IMG/VR virus record: IMGVR_UViG_3300009509_000014
Coordinates: 9,904-73,903 of that record
Direction: 5' to 3' (one strand)
Length of the DNA: 64,000 nt
Source of the DNA: a virus
Positions within the stretch are counted from its first letter, which is position 1, and every line of letters begins with the position of its first letter. Under the pieces are notes generated by a model. The model made no database searches, was not told where the DNA came from, and worked only from the letters and a program-made list of their open reading frames with translations. The translations under genes and the position numbers were made by a program. Below are positions 1-8,141 of the stretch, piece by piece.

Positions 1-275
1 TTTTCGGTAACAATGTCGGCATAATTAACAGCGGTCCCAACCTCCTTTGCGAAAACCTCTGGCCGAGCGTCTTCTAGGAGCTTTAGACTTTGTATCACAA
101 GGTCAAGATATACCACTGCACTGCATGTTGCAATAATCCCTTTAGACGCAGGGTTCTTTACAAGGACTCCCTTCGTGGGGGCAAACACTGTGGATTTGTC
201 ACTTGAATACGAAAAGTAGGACGAAGGACTTATCCAACCTAGATCATACAGCAGTGGCTTCTGTGTCGTTTCCAT
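1..275 (-). CDS. Hypothetical protein, runs off the window edge (METTQKPLLYDLGW...); next gene of the Ubl operon
   Basis: Manual translation gives a frame open from ATG 275 to base 1. GGAGGTG SD upstream; overlaps the stop of the protease gene. Not in the ORF track. Confidence 0.7.
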   Translation of the reverse strand, partial: METTQKPLLYDLGWISPSSYFSYSSDKSTVFAPTKGVLVKNPASKGIIATCSAVVYLDLVIQSLKLLEDARPEVFAKEVGTAVNYADIVTE

Positions 276-1848
276 CACCATCACCTCCAGTGTCTATTTC
301 TTCGGCTATTGCATTGTCGGCCCCATTGTCTTTTCCAGCCGCCTGTGTATCCGCAGGTTTCTTGCCGTCATTAAACTCCCTGATCTGTGTTATTAATCCC
401 TTTGGGTGAGTCTCTTCATTTTTAACGTATGTCAAAAGTTCCCGCCTTTGCACAAATAAACATTCGGGACACACATAATTATACCCCCCTCCCGCTTGAT
501 AGAAGTACAAGGGGACATTGTGCTTGGAACAGATAAAATACGTTGACTCTACGTGCAGCCTTGCATTGAACCCGCATGAGCTATCAATACATATTCCATT
601 GGCTAGAGCCGAGTAACACATTGGGCAAACTTCCGAAATGCCTGCCTGTACTTCTTCTTCAACCTCAAACCAATCGCAGGCCAAACAATATGCTGTTCCG
701 TCAAGCTCTACAACCATGCCTCCGCACTTCCCACAGGCGGTGGATCTCCTTACCGCAGTAGACGTACTTTTTGAACTTTGGACAGTGGTGGCCGGAGTAA
801 CTTCTTGCCTATGAACGGCGCTGGTCGCAGCATTCTTGGCCGTCCTTCTTGCATTGTCCCAGGCATTCAGCGTTTTACCTCCAACACGCGATGACCAGAT
901 AGAGAATTTCCTTTGGACAGAACTTGTTTCTTTCGACTCTCCTGGGAATGCCACTTTTGCGTTTGAGTATCTGTTAATAGACACCCCATTTACTTCATTG
1001 TATTCAGCTAGAGGTCCAAGCTGAAACGCAATCTTCCAGTTTTTAGGAACTGAGTCTCTTGGACCAATAAAGTCTGCATGGCCCACTCCACTTGTCGTTG
1101 AAGACCATTGACCCTTTACTGTAGTCCCACCAGATTTTTTCACCTGGGCAGAACTTGACATCATAACTACGCATGGGACCATTGGTGGTTCGTCAACAAA
1201 CTCAAACCGGAGAGTGTCACGAATCATCTTCGCTTCTGGACCGTTTGGATCAAAACCCATAGCGTCTATGAAGTCATCATTCGATGCGCCGTAAGTTTGC
1301 AGTGCCAGTGGATTTATTCCCAATGCTTGTGCAAATTCCTTTAGCTGATCTCCAAGAGTTGACATCTTTGGAACATAAACCTTGGTAATTCCCTTGCCCC
1401 AAGGGACTGCAAGCCCGTGAGCGACAGCCAGAACATTTGCCTTGTTAACTCCATCAGAGTTCACCCTTGGGTGCTGCTCAAACCAATACTTGTCTCCAGG
1501 GGTGAGTGTCCCAAGGCCAAGTGCCTCCAGGTACTTTTTCGTGGCGTCATATACACAACTATTCACATGATAATGATATGTTGTTGACGTAAACCCATCT
1601 CCCCCTGGATCGACCTTCCATACCGGAAGCTTCTTGTCTCCGGTTGTCATTTCTGGCTCTACGTTCCCAAGAAGGGATTCGGCGGCAAATTCACTAATTT
1701 CGTGCATTGTGCCATTATTGTCGATCAGGTAACCTCCTGGCTCTTTTTTGACCGTGCCAGCAGTTGCTTTGAAAAATTGTTTTGCCACAACCGGAACAAG
1801 TCCGGTTTGCCCCTTGCCATCACCTTTACTTGTCGGAATTAGGGACAT
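244..1848 (-). CDS. Putative papain/OTU-like cysteine protease (candidate Ubl-deconjugating enzyme) with three C-terminal zinc ribbons
   Basis: Cys motif HVNSCVYDA and downstream His motif SGVGHADF (H-x-D). C-terminal CGKC/CLAC, CPMC/CIDSSC, CSKH/CPEC pairs. Start moved to ATG 1848, which has an AGGAGG SD. Confidence 0.55.
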   Translation of the reverse strand: MSLIPTSKGDGKGQTGLVPVVAKQFFKATAGTVKKEPGGYLIDNNGTMHEISEFAAESLLGNVEPEMTTGDKKLPVWKVDPGGDGFTSTTYHYHVNSCVYDATKKYLEALGLGTLTPGDKYWFEQHPRVNSDGVNKANVLAVAHGLAVPWGKGITKVYVPKMSTLGDQLKEFAQALGINPLALQTYGASNDDFIDAMGFDPNGPEAKMIRDTLRFEFVDEPPMVPCVVMMSSSAQVKKSGGTTVKGQWSSTTSGVGHADFIGPRDSVPKNWKIAFQLGPLAEYNEVNGVSINRYSNAKVAFPGESKETSSVQRKFSIWSSRVGGKTLNAWDNARRTAKNAATSAVHRQEVTPATTVQSSKSTSTAVRRSTACGKCGGMVVELDGTAYCLACDWFEVEEEVQAGISEVCPMCYSALANGICIDSSCGFNARLHVESTYFICSKHNVPLYFYQAGGGYNYVCPECLFVQRRELLTYVKNEETHPKGLITQIREFNDGKKPADTQAAGKDNGADNAIAEEIDTGGDGDGNDTEATAV

Positions 1849-2566
1849 CAGAAACCTCCTTCTGGCCACTTGTTCCTGTTATGCACCGTGCCGTTGTATT
1901 GATTCTGCCGTCGCCAATACCAACTACCCAATTCACCATGTCTCCGTTCTCGGCAACCCTTCCGCGATCTTGATAGACGATTCCGACAGGATCGTGACCA
2001 CTGATATAGATGAAGATTGATATTGCAGCACATTCTGTCACCAAGGCAGAAAACACCCGCGTTGCAACAAGCGCACAGGCAGGTTCCTTTTCCTCAGACA
2101 CCTTGTAGTCCTTCGCGATTCCTGTAAATGGCATGGTTACAACGTCTCCGTGCGACCACGACACAACCCCTCCAACCTGTGATAGACCAAGGTCGATGTA
2201 TGGAATGCCATATTCTTGCGACGCCTGTAGGAGTAGCTGCCTTGATGGAACATTGTCAAGCGCACCAACAATCAGCGTATGACCCTTCACGATCCACAGG
2301 TTCTTCTCTGTGATTCTCACTCTCTGGACCTTGACATTAAGACCAGCGGCTTCATAGACAGGCGCAAGGATGTCAGCCTTGTTCTTGCCGATGCTCGCGG
2401 GAACTCCGAGATTCCCTGGCGAGTTCCGTTTCTCAACCTTGTCAAAGTCAACAAGGGTTACTCCAAACGGAACATCGAGAGAGGTCGAGAAAGCGCATAG
2501 AGGGCTAGCGATCATGGAGCCTAACAATCCAGCGCCTACTATCAAAATGTTGTTCCCATTTACCAT
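1826..2566 (-). CDS. ThiF/MoeB/E1-family adenylyltransferase
   Basis: ILIVGAGLLGS nucleotide-binding loop, LVDFDKVEKRN, GKNKA, GALDNVPSR, IPYIDLG, and candidate catalytic Cys in EPAC. Confidence 0.92.
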   Translation of the reverse strand: MVNGNNILIVGAGLLGSMIASPLCAFSTSLDVPFGVTLVDFDKVEKRNSPGNLGVPASIGKNKADILAPVYEAAGLNVKVQRVRITEKNLWIVKGHTLIVGALDNVPSRQLLLQASQEYGIPYIDLGLSQVGGVVSWSHGDVVTMPFTGIAKDYKVSEEKEPACALVATRVFSALVTECAAISIFIYISGHDPVGIVYQDRGRVAENGDMVNWVVGIGDGRINTTARCITGTSGQKEVSDVPNSDK

Positions 2567-2567
2567 A

Positions 2568-3758
2568 TCATCCTCCTATCGTAATTGGCGGGTATAGTTG
2601 GCCAATCTGTTTAGACTTCGACCCAGGACTGACGCCATGAACCAGTGCGTACATTTGCTTCTTGTGGAGCGACACACCCATCGTCTGATATTTTGGAGAT
2701 TCGCAAGTGCATCCATAGACCGAATATGGGCAGTACGGATCGCCACATTCGCATACATTTTGAACGGACTTTCCACATTTCACGCACATATTTTTCCCCG
2801 CTATGTCGTATGTAGAATTTGTACTACTGCACTTTGCGACAGGACACTTCCCGTATGGCTCATTTAGCATCATACCACACTTCGCACAGTACAGGCCAAT
2901 CATCCCATACGGAGTTACTCCGGAAATAGCATTGGCCATAGCTGTTAGAATTGGTACGGATGCAAGCGGGTTAGAACTTTTCTTTTCTGGCTTGAATATC
3001 TGTCCAAAATCTCCAAAAACGTCTTTGCCTTGCCGCTTTAGCCAGAACAGCCTCAGTGAAGTCGTTGCCCATGTTCCTACAGTTTGGCCTTGTGTCATGG
3101 ATGCAATTCGGATATCCTTGTTATTGTACGAACCGTACCCTTCGCGCTGGCACCAATACGAACAGACAAATCCAGTTGGATAAGGGAATTCCTTTGGAAT
3201 CTTCCGATATCTTGTATGGAAGCCATCCCACATTGGCTTCGTTAGCCAGTGAACAACATTATACCCTGGGTATAATGGATCAAGTCCCTTGATATCGAAT
3301 ACGGTTGCAACCACAAGCCCCTTGTAGACAAGTGGCTTTCTGAACATTGCGCCGATGGCGTCTGCAGTGTTTTCCATACGACCGTCAGACAGGTAATAAA
3401 TGTACCGAATTGAGTTACCCCTGATAGTAACGGCGTTGCCGAAATAGCGTTGCAGATCTCGCAGGACCATTCGCCGCTCAGCCGATTCGTCCCAAAATTC
3501 CTGTGGCTTGATCACTGGTTTCACCCAGGTATTGTCGTGGTTAACATGGCCAGTTCTAGACCTCATTTCCCTCATAATTCTTAACTGGAGATCTTTATCA
3601 TACGTCACAAACTTTTGCGAAGCATCGCCAGTATTAGGGTCGTATACATGAAGCCTTAGTCCATGACGCCCCCCAAAAACGGTTACGTTATCAAGCACCT
3701 TGTTTTTCTCTGTATCGTAAAGCCTTGTTGTTGGCCCATCATTCAATGTGACAAGCAT
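2568..3758 (-). CDS. Putative E2 (UBC-fold) conjugating enzyme with C-terminal Cys-rich zinc-binding region
   Basis: LDPLYP..VVHWLTKP...FH...TGFVCS parallels the E2 pattern PxxYP..P.v.F.T..fHPN...G.iCl. Eleven Cys in the C-terminal ~65 aa. AGGAGGTAAG SD. Confidence 0.55.
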   Translation of the reverse strand: MLVTLNDGPTTRLYDTEKNKVLDNVTVFGGRHGLRLHVYDPNTGDASQKFVTYDKDLQLRIMREMRSRTGHVNHDNTWVKPVIKPQEFWDESAERRMVLRDLQRYFGNAVTIRGNSIRYIYYLSDGRMENTADAIGAMFRKPLVYKGLVVATVFDIKGLDPLYPGYNVVHWLTKPMWDGFHTRYRKIPKEFPYPTGFVCSYWCQREGYGSYNNKDIRIASMTQGQTVGTWATTSLRLFWLKRQGKDVFGDFGQIFKPEKKSSNPLASVPILTAMANAISGVTPYGMIGLYCAKCGMMLNEPYGKCPVAKCSSTNSTYDIAGKNMCVKCGKSVQNVCECGDPYCPYSVYGCTCESPKYQTMGVSLHKKQMYALVHGVSPGSKSKQIGQLYPPITIGG

Positions 3759-3777
3759 ATCTTACCTCCTGGATAGA

Positions 3778-3813
3778 ATAAAAAAGGCCGAGAGTGGCAG
3801 TCCACTCTCGGCC
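3778..3813 (-). terminator. Intrinsic terminator after the Ubl gene
   Basis: Perfect 12-bp stem GGCCGAGAGTGG/CCACTCTCGGCC with a 4-nt loop, followed by TTTTTT on the minus strand. Confidence 0.85.
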
Positions 3814-3854
3814 CTTGTGCTGTGTGTTCTGCCGCAGGCTCAGGTCAACTGCGT

Positions 3855-4313
3855 CTAGCCAAACGGCGCAGCGGCCAGCACATGCCATTCCACCCCGTCG
3901 TTCGGGATCACCACCATCTGCGGAGTGAGGTCGCCAGCCGCGATGTAGAAGTGGTCTGTCCCAGGGTCCTGATCGCTGATCACGAAGCTGTGTTCCTTCA
4001 CCAAGTAGTTGCAGGTCGCGTCCACGATCCGCTGAGGGAGCGGCTTCGAGCTTGATGCCAGAAGATCGGCGGTGAGCTTCCCCATCGCTGCCTGCAGCTT
4101 CGCCGCGTTACCAGCCGCGCCGAGAGCTTTCAGTTCGTCAAAGTTTGGCGGAGCAACGTCTGCGACCTTCTCGCCATACTTGTCCAGGAACTCTGCCAAC
4201 CCGCCGCGATAGTCAACCTGCCGTGTTGCGCGGCCTCCAGCACTCGTTGTCTTCGCGCCCGAAATAATAACCGAAATCTGATCGGACGCTCCTACTGTCA
4301 ATTCTTTTGCCAT
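3855..4313 (-). CDS. Putative ubiquitin-like beta-grasp protein (MoaD/ThiS/CysO/SAMP-like) with an internal helical insertion and C-terminal Gly
   Basis: N-terminal ISVIISGAKTTSAGGRATRQVDYRGGLAEFLD and C-terminal PNDGVEWHVLAAAPFG* resemble the two ends of CysO/MoaD (e.g. DGDSVTILPAVAGG). Same operon as E1. GGGAGGT SD. Confidence 0.65.
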   Translation of the reverse strand: MAKELTVGASDQISVIISGAKTTSAGGRATRQVDYRGGLAEFLDKYGEKVADVAPPNFDELKALGAAGNAAKLQAAMGKLTADLLASSSKPLPQRIVDATCNYLVKEHSFVISDQDPGTDHFYIAAGDLTPQMVVIPNDGVEWHVLAAAPFG

Positions 4314-4384
4314 GTTGTACCTCCCGTATACAGGAATTTTTGACGGGCCGAATCACAAAATGTCTGTGACCCGCCCGACTGTAT

Positions 4385-4413
4385 ATTATACTGGAATTGT
4401 CTAACTTTGTTGA
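4385..4413 (-). promoter_or_regulatory. Conserved phage promoter, copy 1 (drives Ubl)
   Basis: TCAACA-AAGTTAGACAATTCCAG(17)-TATAAT. Confidence 0.8.
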
Positions 4414-4940
4414 GAATTACTGCGGATCACCTTGTAAAAGATTGGATGATCTTTTCCAACATACCACCTGTAAGTACTCCCCAATTTGCCATAATCCATT
4501 ATATATTCTGGATAAGACTCTGTAAGTCTTTTATAGGAAATTGTGCCTTCTGTGGTGTTGATCCTTTTACATAATTCCCACGGTACAAGGTAAGCTTCCG
4601 CACTCATACGCCCCATTATTTTTTGTCTATTCCAGTCTAATTTCATACTTGGCATGTCAAGAAATCCTATAGCTACCCATGAAGACATTGGAGCTAGATT
4701 TTCTACAAAATCTAATGCGCGAATTTGATGATCTCTAAATACAGACATTGGCATTGTCCATCCAGAAGCCTTTTTAGCTTCTATGGCGACAAACCTGAGA
4801 ATTTTCCCGCCATTTACAGTAAGCGGAATTCCAACCACGTAGTCGAATGGCTTTAGCGATCTCCCGCAGTCTGGTATTTTTATAGAGAACCCAAGTTTCC
4901 TGAAAGCTAGCTTGCGTTCAAACTTGCTCTTAACGCTCAC
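4401..4940 (-). CDS. RecU-like Holliday junction resolvase (PD-(D/E)XK)
   Basis: KPFDY...AIEAKK...FRDHQIRAL pattern of the RecU family. Confidence 0.75.
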   Translation of the reverse strand: MSVKSKFERKLAFRKLGFSIKIPDCGRSLKPFDYVVGIPLTVNGGKILRFVAIEAKKASGWTMPMSVFRDHQIRALDFVENLAPMSSWVAIGFLDMPSMKLDWNRQKIMGRMSAEAYLVPWELCKRINTTEGTISYKRLTESYPEYIMDYGKLGSTYRWYVGKDHPIFYKVIRSNSQQS

Positions 4941-5431
4941 ACTATAATACGACCTTTCTTATCGACGGAATATACAAGAGCGCCATCCTGTCTGCCACCG
5001 CCGCTAAAAAACACCACTATAGACGGAAATGGTGCTTGATCTTTCTCGCCAACAAATCTTAACCTTCCCTTTATTATAAGTATTGCGAAAGCATGTTTCA
5101 ATATTATGTCATGAAACCATCTGGTATCTGTTCTGGCAGGAAGAAGCATACAAACAAACGATCCATGTTTCACAGATTCGTGATACCCCTTCTTTACCCA
5201 TTTAGGAGTAATGTACTTCCCATACGGAGGATTAACCCATACGGTTCCTTTCCAGTCTTGGGAAAGTGCATCGTCCTCTTTTGTGTAAAACACTTCACAC
5301 TTTGCGTTCTTTGGTGTTGCTGCCGCATCTAGTGTAAAATGGAACATTTCGTTAAATGTGTCAAAAAGGTCTTGTGGAGTTTCGTACTCATCTTTTTTGG
5401 AGGACATCATAGCCCCCTTCATGTCAACCAC
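4937..5431 (-). CDS. Phage DNA N6-adenine methyltransferase (Dam/T1-like)
   Basis: DEYETP, FTLDAAA, VWVNPPYG, LLPARTDTRWFH, GRLRF, APFPS. Confidence 0.92.
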   Translation of the reverse strand: MVDMKGAMMSSKKDEYETPQDLFDTFNEMFHFTLDAAATPKNAKCEVFYTKEDDALSQDWKGTVWVNPPYGKYITPKWVKKGYHESVKHGSFVCMLLPARTDTRWFHDIILKHAFAILIIKGRLRFVGEKDQAPFPSIVVFFSGGGRQDGALVYSVDKKGRIIV

Positions 5432-5439
5432 TCTGTCTC

Positions 5440-6540
5440 CTAGCCAGCGAAATACATTGGCATAATGCCATACTTATAATTATCAGAGTCGCTTAAAACA
5501 ATTAGTGCAGTTGGTGCATTTACGCTGAATGTAATTATGTCACTTTTTAGTTTTATCAATGCGTCTTTTAGGTATTTGATTGACGCCCCGAACCTTTTTG
5601 GAGGCCCATTAAATTGAAGACAATCAAGGTCACTTGTATGCTTGCCAGAACTTGACGATGCAGAAATCTCAACCTTACCATCATCGTTTACAGAAATCAC
5701 TACAAGGTTTTCAGAATCAAGGGCATCTGTTGTTGCTAAAGAGATAGCTTCGGCTAGCTCGTCGCGACTCACACTGAATGTTGTCTCAAACTCCGTTGGC
5801 ATAAGCGACTTGTAATCAGGGAAGCTGTGATTGATAACAAGTGTTGCGATCACTCCGTCTTGCCAGCTAACTATAAATTTCCCGCCAACCCTATACACGT
5901 AAATCTCTTCAAGCCCGTCAATGGCCTTTGCAATCTTGGCAAGGGAAACTGCTGGAACAAGAGTCTCTTCTTCTACAAGCTTTTCAGTGTTGTATATTGA
6001 TAACCTAGCTCCGTCAGCAGACACAACATCTGTGCCATTCATGAAGATTCCCTCTAGGGCAGGGAATGGGCTTTTAGGATCGGCAGCGGCCATAGTCATT
6101 CTAATGGCTGTTACAAGTTCTTTCCCGTCTATCTTTTTTGCTACCTTGTCGGAGTCAACCATAAATGATCTGTCCAACGTGGGGAATAGGATTGTATCAA
6201 CTGTCGCAAGTTTAGAAGTATGGTTACCTGACTTGATTGTTACAAAATTCCCAAATGTCATAGACAGTTCCCCTGACGCCTTCGCTAGTATCTGCAATTT
6301 AGGGAGTAGTCTGTCTGCAGGAATGCAGACATTAAAGCTTCCTTCTACCCCACTGGCGTCAATGTACATGGAAATGTCCGTTGTTCCACTGTCTATCGCC
6401 GACAGTTCTAAAACACCTTCTTTAAGAGAGAATTTTATACACTGAAGGGCTTGTACAGGGCTTTTCCTAGTAACCCACATAGAAACCTTGGATACAACGT
6501 CAAGAATCTTCTCCGTCTGGAACGTCATCTTTATTGCCAC
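5440..6540 (-). CDS. dnaN: DNA polymerase III beta sliding clamp
   Basis: 366 aa; SADGARLS, FPDYKSLMP, KYLKDAL, C-terminal IMPM. Confidence 0.9.
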   Translation of the reverse strand: MAIKMTFQTEKILDVVSKVSMWVTRKSPVQALQCIKFSLKEGVLELSAIDSGTTDISMYIDASGVEGSFNVCIPADRLLPKLQILAKASGELSMTFGNFVTIKSGNHTSKLATVDTILFPTLDRSFMVDSDKVAKKIDGKELVTAIRMTMAAADPKSPFPALEGIFMNGTDVVSADGARLSIYNTEKLVEEETLVPAVSLAKIAKAIDGLEEIYVYRVGGKFIVSWQDGVIATLVINHSFPDYKSLMPTEFETTFSVSRDELAEAISLATTDALDSENLVVISVNDDGKVEISASSSSGKHTSDLDCLQFNGPPKRFGASIKYLKDALIKLKSDIITFSVNAPTALIVLSDSDNYKYGIMPMYFAG

Positions 6541-7513
6541 TTGTCAGTATTCCTTTCGCCTTATCATACATGGCCGAAAGCACTTCGTCTTTACTTATGT
6601 ATTCATATAGATTTGTGCGACCATGAAACTTCTCCCCGTCTACCTCAAACCACGAACCACTTTGACTTATCAGCCCAAGTGAAATTCCAGCGTCGATAAC
6701 GCTTTCTACCTTGTCAAAGCCAACACCAAAGTTCAATCGCAGATCGGCACTCCTGAATGGAGTAGCTAGGGAGTTTTTCTTTATTGTAACCCTTACAATT
6801 TGTCCGGTTGGATCTCCGCCAGATGTTGTTAATGTTTTTATCCTTCTCATGTCTATACGGAGTGATGCGTTATGCCGAAGCGCCCAACCTCCAGGTTGTG
6901 TTTGTTGTGGCCCCATAGCCAAACTCCCCATGCCGCCAATCTTTGAGCGTATTTGGTTCACAAAAATAACAGTTGCGTCATTTGCCTTCATAGAGTGAAC
7001 CATTTGTCTTAGGTTTTGCGACAAGATTCTAGCTAGTAGTCCAACAAATTGATCTCCGGTAACACCCTCCCATTCTGCCTTTGGGACAAGGGACGGAACG
7101 CTATCTATTACAACTAGCCTCACTCCGCCTTTTATTAGTGCGTGGCAGACATTTAGTGCGGCTTCCCCATACGGCGGTTGTGTAAAATACATTCTGTCAA
7201 GATCGACCCCAAGCGTTTCCGCCCATACAGGATCGATACGATGTTCCATATCAATGTACGCAGTCTCCAATCCGTGACGCTGAGCCTGCGCTATAAGCTG
7301 CAAGCATAGCGTTGTTTTCCCGACACCTTCCGGTGAGTAAACTTCTACAAAATACCCAAGCGGAATTCCACCAATTCCTATTGCAAGGTCTAGTTGCAGT
7401 AGGCCAGTGGGGATATAAGGCACTTGGGCGACTTCATTATCACCCAAATGCCCTATAAAGATGTCGTATTTCTTGGCAAGTTCGCTTGCCACGGCATCTA
7501 TCCCTTTTGCCAT
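6500..7513 (-). CDS. recA: RecA recombinase
   Basis: IPTG..LDLAIGIGGIP, SPEGVGKTTL, VVIDSV, IFVNQIR.KIG, PGGWAL. Confidence 0.97.
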   Translation of the reverse strand: MAKGIDAVASELAKKYDIFIGHLGDNEVAQVPYIPTGLLQLDLAIGIGGIPLGYFVEVYSPEGVGKTTLCLQLIAQAQRHGLETAYIDMEHRIDPVWAETLGVDLDRMYFTQPPYGEAALNVCHALIKGGVRLVVIDSVPSLVPKAEWEGVTGDQFVGLLARILSQNLRQMVHSMKANDATVIFVNQIRSKIGGMGSLAMGPQQTQPGGWALRHNASLRIDMRRIKTLTTSGGDPTGQIVRVTIKKNSLATPFRSADLRLNFGVGFDKVESVIDAGISLGLISQSGSWFEVDGEKFHGRTNLYEYISKDEVLSAMYDKAKGILTSGNKDDVPDGEDS

Positions 7514-7524
7514 TTACCTATCCT

Positions 7525-7911
7525 TTACAGAGGAAAATCGTCGTCTTCAAAAACATCCGTGCTTGAACTTACAAGACTTTCATCCACTGATGATTCAGAA
7601 CTGCTACCTTTTGGATCAAGGAAGATAACGCTATTAGCAATAATCTTTAGAGTTGTTCTGCGCTTCCCATCATCGCCAACCCAGTCATCCTGATCGATGC
7701 GTCCGGTAACAGCGACGCGAGAACCTTTCTTTGTGTACTTGTTTACTAATTCTGCCAACTTGCCCCAAACAGAAACGTCAAACCACAATGTCTTCTCTGG
7801 TGCAACTTGTACAGCAAATCGAAAAGACGTTACCGCACTTTCATTAGACAGAAACTTCATTGACGGATCGACTCCCAACCGTCCGGTAAAACTAACTGCA
7901 TTTAAGTCCAT
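7525..7911 (-). CDS. ssb: Single-stranded DNA-binding protein
   Basis: GRLGVDP, WF.V..WGKLAE, KG..V.V.GR, acidic tail EDDDFPL. Confidence 0.95.
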   Translation of the reverse strand: MDLNAVSFTGRLGVDPSMKFLSNESAVTSFRFAVQVAPEKTLWFDVSVWGKLAELVNKYTKKGSRVAVTGRIDQDDWVGDDGKRRTTLKIIANSVIFLDPKGSSSESSVDESLVSSSTDVFEDDDFPL

Positions 7912-8141
7912 TCTATGTCTCCATTTATAATTGTTAATCTTAAATCTATCATATCTATTGAAGCCTTTGAGTAGAACAATGGCGACTGCCCTGCTGGCTT
8001 CTCGGCACGACAGTTGCTATAATACTTACATGGAATTATACTATTATATCTTCTGCATGTCAAACATGACTTTGCTGAGATTGCTTCCGCTATGCTGCTG
8101 TAGGCCACAATTGGCCTGCCATTTAGATATCCAAGGCGCAT
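7902..8141 (-). CDS. Hypothetical Cys-containing protein
   Basis: Overlaps both neighbours in the operon; CxxC..C...C. Confidence 0.6.
   Translation of the reverse strand: MRLGYLNGRPIVAYSSIAEAISAKSCLTCRRYNSIIPCKYYSNCRAEKPAGQSPLFYSKASIDMIDLRLTIINGDIEWT

Follow-up and report, generated by a model that had tools for sequence, protein, structure and literature searches.

A phage gene cassette that may encode an E1-dependent, ubiquitin-like tagging pathway built from largely unrecognised parts

Introduction

Work on the conjugation of ubiquitin-like proteins (Ubl) in prokaryotes has until now dealt with it as a function of the cell, chiefly in anti-phage defence (Bil, CBASS Cap2/Cap3 and Bub). 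The Bil operons (BilABCD) are bacterial ISG15-like conjugation operons that serve in anti-phage defence (10.1101/2023.09.04.556158; PMC10557695). Bub operons of types I and II are reported to use oxyester (Ser) intermediates, peptidase-E1 fusions and a Ser-His protease (Ye et al. 2024, 10.1101/2024.11.21.623953). On the viral side, Ubl domains of the phage TAPI proteins have been described in tail assembly (PMC1779556) and E1 homologues in Asgard viruses (10.1101/2021.07.29.454249). Here we analyse a four-gene cassette at the left end of a stretch of 64,000 nucleotides (the window), which corresponds to bases 9904-73903 of the 73.9-kb IMG/VR viral record IMGVR_UViG_3300009509_000014 (completeness estimate 60%). 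The cassette encodes a 152-residue (aa) protein ending in glycine, the candidate tag, together with a 396-aa Cys-domain protein, a 246-aa E1 and a 534-aa Cys/His protein. It fails the membership of Bil, of CBASS Cap2/Cap3 and of Bub, and no description of a phage cassette with this composition was found in the literature. We lean towards reading the cassette as a phage-encoded E1-dependent tagging pathway that would be ubiquitin-like in its working and whose parts are largely unrecognised.

Results

Only the 246-aa E1, among the four cassette proteins, belongs to a catalogued family. Its score with the Pfam ThiF model (PF00899) is 62.4 bits (E 4.7e-17), well over the cut-off of 28.1, in agreement with the ThiF/E1 enzyme proposed in an initial annotation of the sequence. 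That annotation had read the four genes as a Ubl-E2-E1-Cys protease cassette; the E1 stands as a family assignment, while the "E2" and the "Cys protease" are roles argued from context rather than family memberships. The best match of the E1 in the PADLOC defence library is BilD (1e-7), with the Cap2 "E1-E2" models at 1.5e-4 and weaker. Comparisons with the NCBIfam equivalogs of ThiF, MoeB, PRTRC-ThiF, SAMP-E1 and TcdA gave at best 38 bits, reaching none of the cut-offs (144-647). The nearest solved structures by sequence are TcdA (1.2e-5), then UBA6, UBA1 and SAE2, in the range of 1e-5 to 1e-2. The E1 is therefore divergent and minimal, and no functional subfamily fits it. The residues invariant in four E1s, including a distant one of 28-29% identity, are G11-x-G13-x-x-G16, D40, R47-N48, K63, D104-N105 and P-x-C164, for which we assume the catalytic roles of their MoeB and ThiF counterparts. 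Cys164 lies ~60 residues beyond D104, presumably at the position expected for C184 of ThiF and C187 of MoeB. The protein is a bare adenylation domain, lacking both a CxxC zinc site and any extra domain.

The 152-aa protein ends in AAAPFG-stop, in agreement with the glycine end reported in the initial annotation. The tag family, as retrieved by profile search, numbers 19 homologues of 143-152 aa; all are metagenomic, and every one of them has A-A-A-P-[F/Y]-G near or at the C-terminus. The Gly is the last residue in 14 of the 19, and the other five extend for 1-3 unconserved residues (HAA, A, A, SGA and AN), the form with PFG-HAA being that of L003, a close relative described below. Conservation ends exactly at the Gly. 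Judging from the sequences, this pattern, with a short tail sometimes following the Gly, is what marks E1 substrates that are synthesised as precursors. The AlphaFold model of the tag (pLDDT 82) shows a long beta-hairpin (residues 12-38) followed by a helical stretch of three to four helices (39-108), and its C-terminal part consists of two short strands, a second hairpin (130-147) and a five-residue tail. Comparison of the tag orthologues (window 3855-4313, L003:7428-7880 and L004:7456-7911) showed that the G+C of the tag gene exceeds that of its own genome by 10-14 points in all three phages (59% vs. 45% here, with 69% at third codon positions), which may be due to the Ala/Gly-rich composition or to selection on a highly expressed gene.

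Transcript coverage was obtained from four metatranscriptome runs of two studies, which contained 11-14% of the words, by mapping contigs to positions 1-8000 of the window. The RNA contigs of the tag unit cover 3810-4366; 3817-4370; 3833-4344; and 3841-4172 plus 4195-4355, with a word depth of 9-14 in three of the four runs. The cover extends from just past the -10 box to the foot of a terminator-like hairpin (Table 1), and library adapter stands directly beyond position 4370 in the contig 3817-4370. The other RNA pieces are a 216-nt contig within the 396-aa gene (depth 2.2) and ~170 nt of a gene for a single-stranded DNA-binding protein (SSB). The contigs of this SSB-like gene (7525-7911) lie in its 3' part, at window 7521-7705, and come from two runs of one study. 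The E1 and 534-aa genes have no RNA contig cover, and contigs alone do not prove silence. Cover that is patchy and confined to one promoter-to-terminator unit in two studies reasonably suggests that the tag mRNA is monocistronic and abundant and that the enzymes are expressed at a lower level through read-through. Near-exclusive cover of the tag unit would also be expected if a stoichiometric tag were produced in larger amounts than its enzymes. The placement of all four genes under one promoter in the initial annotation is doubtful, as the terminator-like hairpin parts the 152-aa gene from the three enzyme genes and the RNA contigs represent essentially the 152-aa unit only. Activation of this abundant, Gly-ended small protein by the E1 is a well-supported assignment.

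The 396-aa protein has three parts: a small beta domain at the N-terminus, an alpha/beta domain in the centre and a double zinc ribbon at the C-terminus. Alignment of 13 close homologues (40-63% identity) showed invariant Y-x-S-D-G, P-L-x-[YF]-x-G, N167, W171 and W-C203-Q-R-x-G, as well as two four-Cys zinc ribbons, and some family members have zinc-ribbon Pfam matches. An exhaustive profile search of 1.84 billion representative sequences yielded 12 close relatives and ~20 distant ones of 330-615 aa, the latter sharing the central domain alone. The invariant core across the distant homologues is reduced to Y-x-S-D-G, the Gly and W-C-[QE]-R, with H181 lost; all are unnamed metagenome proteins and none has a Pfam domain. 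Searched back, the profile of the distant group matches the 396-aa ORF (open reading frame) of the window at 1.2e-18. Cys203 (W-C-[QE]-R-x-G) is retained in the close group, in the distant group and in three paralogues of the distant phage G001 described below. The Cys of the GFVC motif (C199), the one named in the initial annotation, is Ala in most homologues and gives way to C203 in W-C-Q/E-R as the invariant Cys, and the His of the "FH" motif (H181) is not retained in the distant homologues.

An E2 would be expected to have an HPN motif (or His/Asn) ~8-10 residues before the catalytic Cys. The HPN motif is absent from the 396-aa protein, in which H181 lies 22 residues before C203 and the sole conserved Asn, N167, lies 36 before it. 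Comparisons with E2 families and known folds gave no match, the family profile returned only zinc-ribbon noise from the PDB sequences, and the ESM Atlas gave no usable match, the Atlas's own model of the protein being poor (pLDDT 0.34). In an attempt to assemble an E2 comparison profile, Prok-E2_B (PF14461) was not found among 401 Bacillota genomes, and a Cap2 model search retrieved just two plausible E2-E1 fusions, insufficient for a profile. What survives of the E2 label is an invariant Cys, C203; a UBC match, by sequence or by fold, was not obtained. The zinc-ribbon tails of the window's branch may be used for docking.

The 534-aa protein has an N-terminal domain of ~300 aa, followed by four Cys-pair zinc-ribbon motifs and an acidic tail. 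N96-x-C98 and G-H257-A-D-F, along with many other residues of the N-terminal domain, are retained in an alignment of 10 homologues. The Cys-then-His order, which is of clan CA type, is conserved in these 10 homologues and in a 798-aa protein of G001. An alternative GTG start extends the gene to 541 aa (244-1869), in which C98/H257 become C105/H264. Comparisons of the family with Pfam and PDB sequences gave zinc-ribbon noise only. The leads from a protein language model (ESM) are clusters of peptidase C39, C39_2 and IpaJ at 0.89-0.90, a score that shuffled sequences reach a few times per hundred. The "Cys protease" label is upheld as far as the invariant C98/H257 pair goes, and profile comparison with peptidase C39 showed no similarity.

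Searches for relatives of the cassette showed that the gene order recurs in viral metagenomes, as the initial annotation had proposed to check. Two contigs, L003 (37 kb, from IMG/VR) and L004 (22.8 kb, from a metagenome), are close relatives that have the four genes and a fifth one in unchanged order and likewise within the replication module; metagenome and viral scans gave no relatives beyond this close pair. A much more distant locus, L008, was reached through a distant Cys-domain homologue (P0062) in G001, a 194-kb viral contig with a completeness of 84%. Directly downstream of P0062 lies a 246-aa ThiF gene whose product is 29% identical to the window E1 (E 1e-22), keeps the P-x-C and scores 66.6 bits with PF00899. 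The next gene encodes the 798-aa protein, in which residues 340-574 match the N-terminal domain of the 534-aa protein (residues 69-309) with an hhalign probability of 99.5%, the Cys and the His being kept. Directly upstream of P0062 is the gene of a 163-aa protein ending in ...A-V-W-G-K. Before this tag gene, at L008:7789-9364, two more Cys-domain paralogues (311 aa with D-Y-C-E-R and 216 aa with T-W-C-Q-R) give three in tandem, and the 216-aa paralogue may represent the minimal Cys-domain. The relationship between the G001 Cys-domains and that of the window is detectable by profile only. Homology between the window and G001 is confirmed for three of the four cassette proteins. With the gene order kept in the close pair and again in the very distant G001, conservation of the linkage exceeds by far what chance would give.

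The two distant versions differ in several respects. The window phage is much smaller than G001 and has one Cys-domain gene instead of three. Unlike the G001 cassette, that of the window has zinc-ribbon tails on both partner enzymes, a tag ending in P-F-G rather than W-G, and an extra fifth gene. ARAGORN made a tmRNA-like call with the tag peptide DKSYAFLG at L008:1924-2272, some 8 kb upstream of the G001 cassette.

Eight other viral contigs with ThiF genes (L012-L019) represent different systems, the partner families being absent from them. On three of these, of 105-149 kb, two ThiF-like genes lie ~1 kb apart (L014:4000-6864, L015:4000-6864 and L018:3988-6867) with no tag, Cys-domain or Cys/His homologues, which looks like a different phage E1 system. 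Tblastn against deposited phage genomes returned only two ThiF matches with the E1 (~31% identical) and nothing with the 396-aa protein. Similarly, a scan of genome contigs returned only two remote ThiF genes with the E1 and nothing with the 396-aa family. Megablast of window 1-8000 found no close relative among the deposited phage genomes. In 14 DNA runs of 6 studies (marine sediment, mangrove, sludge and unspecified metagenomes), the stretch was present with 98-100% of its sampled words.

The features of the cassette are listed in Table 1. The four consecutive co-oriented ORFs of the initial annotation are all present on the minus strand with all the quoted motifs, and the enzyme genes abut or overlap as claimed. 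A 1-nt gap separates the stop of the 396-aa gene from the E1 start, the E1 and 534-aa genes overlap by 23 nt, and the 534-aa gene in turn overlaps by 41 nt with the fifth gene, which does run past the window edge. The arrangement of promoter, hairpin, gene and terminator around the tag is common to the window, L003 and L004, with TATAAT-type boxes and hairpins with T-runs. The fifth gene is kept in L003 and L004, and its product has no match in Pfam, NCBIfam or PHROG. A counterpart was looked for in G001 and not found, so the core consists of four genes and the fifth probably lies outside it.

Table 1. Features of the cassette region, in window coordinates
Feature	Coordinates	Strand	Basis or remark
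Promoter-like site, TCAACA, 17 nt, TATAAT	4385..4413	-	Consensus scan; upstream of the tag gene
Imperfect 5'-leader hairpin, then GGGAGG ribosome-binding site	4345..4376	-	Read from sequence
152-aa glycine-ended tag candidate (Ubl-like)	3855..4313	-	ORF, ends AAAPFG-stop
Terminator-like hairpin, 15 pairs, 9 G-C, with T-run	3783..3816	-	Between the tag gene and the enzyme genes
396-aa Cys-domain protein, candidate carrier / E2-like role	2568..3758	-	ORF, 13-homologue alignment
246-aa minimal E1, ThiF-family adenylating enzyme	1826..2566	-	ORF, PF00899 4.7e-17
534-aa Cys/His protein, candidate processing/removal peptidase	244..1848	-	ORF; 534 aa from ATG at 1848 is the recorded form
Start of fifth co-oriented gene, 475 aa in full record	3..284	-	41-nt overlap with the 534-aa gene

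The source is a tailed, uncultured phage from sediment with a genome of 74 kb or more. The plus-strand arm of the window carries the large terminase, portal and major head protein. The minus-strand arms carry a replication module with a sliding clamp, a UvsX/RecA-like recombinase, ribonucleotide reductase, a DnaB-like helicase and DNA methyltransferases. A resolvase-like gene, a methyltransferase, the clamp and the recombinase stand immediately upstream of the cassette. The 179-aa gene immediately upstream (4401-4940) has weak RecU/Holliday-junction resolvase matches (PHROG 0.012, Pfam 0.12). Past the window edge, the record holds the remainder of the fifth gene, followed by a CCA-adding tRNA nucleotidyltransferase (487 aa, with an HD domain and a PolyA_pol head at 9e-28) and 12 tRNA genes. 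In this upstream part of the record (L002:1-8378) the tRNA genes alternate with small ORFs directly downstream of the fifth gene, and for one of the ARAGORN tRNA calls (2192-2277) the anticodon is undetermined. In the close relatives an extra gene of 314-324 aa is inserted between the fifth gene and the CCA-adding enzyme (L003:13101-14045 and L004:13082-14056), where the window's phage has a 380-bp gap.

Discussion

The genes of the cassette suggest the following sequence of events. A separate transcription unit, covered by RNA contigs, would yield the 152-aa protein in abundance. Where a short tail is present it would be trimmed to expose the invariant Gly, the window copy being Gly-ended already. 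The E1 would adenylate this Gly with ATP and possibly form a thioester on Cys164, in line with the chemistry of the family and the conserved residues. The tag would move to Cys203 of the 396-aa protein, for which the linkage points to a carrier or ligase that replaces an E2 or an E2/E3, and from there to an amine of some phage or host target. The 534-aa protein, with its invariant dyad and its conserved linkage, would trim the precursors and/or remove the tag. The three Cys-domain paralogues of G001 are what a carrier/ligase family serving one E1 might show. We regard as plausible, though short of probable, the wider proposal that tailed phages differing widely in size have a Ubl conjugation pathway of their own, that the carrier/ligase and the peptidase are new families unrelated to E2s, JABs and known deubiquitinases, and that the tag floods the cell to modify host or phage proteins, either for takeover or for blunting Ubl-based immunity of the host.

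Several points weigh against a tagging pathway. An E2-docking domain is not recognisable in the E1. For the 534-aa N-terminal domain, hhalign against 27 C39 domains from Bacillota genomes showed no similarity (probability 0.06%); with this test negative, the peptidase role is argued from the invariant Cys-then-His pair and from context. The 163-aa protein of G001 aligns with the tag from end to end with the Gly matched, at a value below significance (hhalign E 0.06). The RNA contigs give neither true RNA levels nor true ends, and DNA carry-over is possible. The two viral records are 60% and 84% complete, so that absent partners are weak evidence and host enzymes could serve instead.

The main alternative, which we consider unlikely, is a sulfur-carrier pathway, in which the 152-aa protein would be of the ThiS/MoaD/TtuB/Urm1 type and its Gly would be thiocarboxylated, supplying sulfur for the thiolation of tRNA, DNA or a cofactor. 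Sulfur transfer is the classic role of ThiF-type enzymes, and a large tRNA set and a CCA-adding enzyme adjoin the cassette. However, this tRNA neighbourhood is not conserved in G001. Neither the window's record nor G001 has a rhodanese, a cysteine desulfurase or a PP-loop thiolase (PF00581, PF00266 and PF01171 were searched in G000 and G001, with controls matched in 13-14 of 14 genomes), and an SGGxDS motif is not conserved in the partner proteins. Very high transcription of the tag would be unusual for a catalytic carrier. The precursor tails of the tag, the linked Cys/His protein and the three Cys-domain paralogues suit conjugation better.

ThiF-like enzymes also serve reactions of the MccB/PaaA type in peptide natural products. 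Accordingly, the Gly might be joined to a lipid (as in Atg8-PE), a cell-wall amine or a nucleotide, or might undergo amidation or cyclisation as with MccB/PaaA, with the Cys/His protein acting as a leader-type peptidase. The occurrence of such chemistry in ThiF-like enzymes, the position of both partner enzymes outside the known E2 and deubiquitinase families and the ESM lead to C39-type, bacteriocin leader-type peptidases would all be in keeping with this. It is nevertheless an improbable reading: the substrate is a folded 152-aa protein and not a short peptide, the cassette has no neighbouring genes for transport, immunity or other natural-product functions, and the hhalign comparison did not confirm the C39 similarity. 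That the genes are neighbours with no common pathway, the E1 acting on a host substrate and the 152-aa protein being an abundant early protein with an unrelated role, would agree with the separate transcription unit of the tag gene with its strong predicted terminator before the enzymes and with three of the four proteins having no assigned fold or family, but is very improbable given that the four-gene order is kept between phages with 29%-identical E1s and otherwise different genes, that an E1 requires precisely such an invariant Gly at the end of its substrate and that the three enzyme genes are translationally coupled.

If the tagging pathway holds true, it would be a complete virus-owned pathway, showing that phages use ubiquitin-like chemistry for themselves. 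Two enzyme families would be new candidates, the one resembling a carrier and the other a peptidase, and both seem to represent independent routes to the E2 and deubiquitinase roles. The system is compact (four genes with a minimal 246-aa E1), RNA contigs from nature point to abundant transcription, and metagenomes of several studies (sediment, mangrove and sludge) contain it, which makes it a tractable target for reconstitution.

Comparison with described systems shows partial likeness to each. As in the Bil operons, four linked genes encode a Gly-ended tag, a carrier with a putative catalytic Cys, an E1 and a candidate removal peptidase, and the E1 has its BilD match. However, the cassette is phage-borne, its three other proteins match no PADLOC model, BilA, BilB and BilC included, and neither viral record contains a JAB peptidase. 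Further differences are a carrier that cannot be recognised as an E2, an E1 reduced to a bare domain of 246 aa and a tag with a helical insert of ~60 aa. With type II CBASS Cap2/Cap3 (PMC10097602) the cassette would share activation of a C-terminus by an E1-type enzyme and an E2-type transfer to Cys, along with the weak match of the E1 to Cap2; it differs in having no E2-E1 fusion, no CD-NTase neighbour and no JAB, and its tag is a dedicated small protein. The Bub operons are reported to have, likewise, a diverged prokaryotic set of E1, E2 and Ubl with a non-JAB peptidase of a new family (BubE), indicating that unfamiliar enzymes can serve such pathways. In contrast to what is described there, the cassette E1 and both partner enzymes keep an invariant Cys where Bub uses Ser, and the cassette genes are separate. 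The sulfur-carrier pairs ThiS-ThiF, MoaD-MoeB, TtuB-TtuC and Urm1-Uba4 also combine a ThiF-family E1 with a small Gly-ended protein, and the cassette E1 is similar in size to ThiF and MoeB. However, it reaches 38 bits against the ThiF/MoeB cut-offs of 159-450, has no CxxC and is accompanied by two extra linked Cys enzymes.

The eukaryotic Atg8/Atg12 and UFM1 systems use a non-canonical E1, divergent E2s that have no HPN and a Cys-protease that exposes the terminal Gly. The cassette would match this parts list, including a Cys peptidase in place of a JAB, a single Gly that is sometimes masked by a tail, and a non-canonical carrier. The comparison is one of working only, as no sequence or fold relation to Atg3, Atg10, UFC1, Atg4 or UfSP was detected and the host is prokaryotic. 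In functional terms, judged by this analogy, it is the Atg8/Atg12 or UFM1 systems that the phage cassette seems to resemble most.

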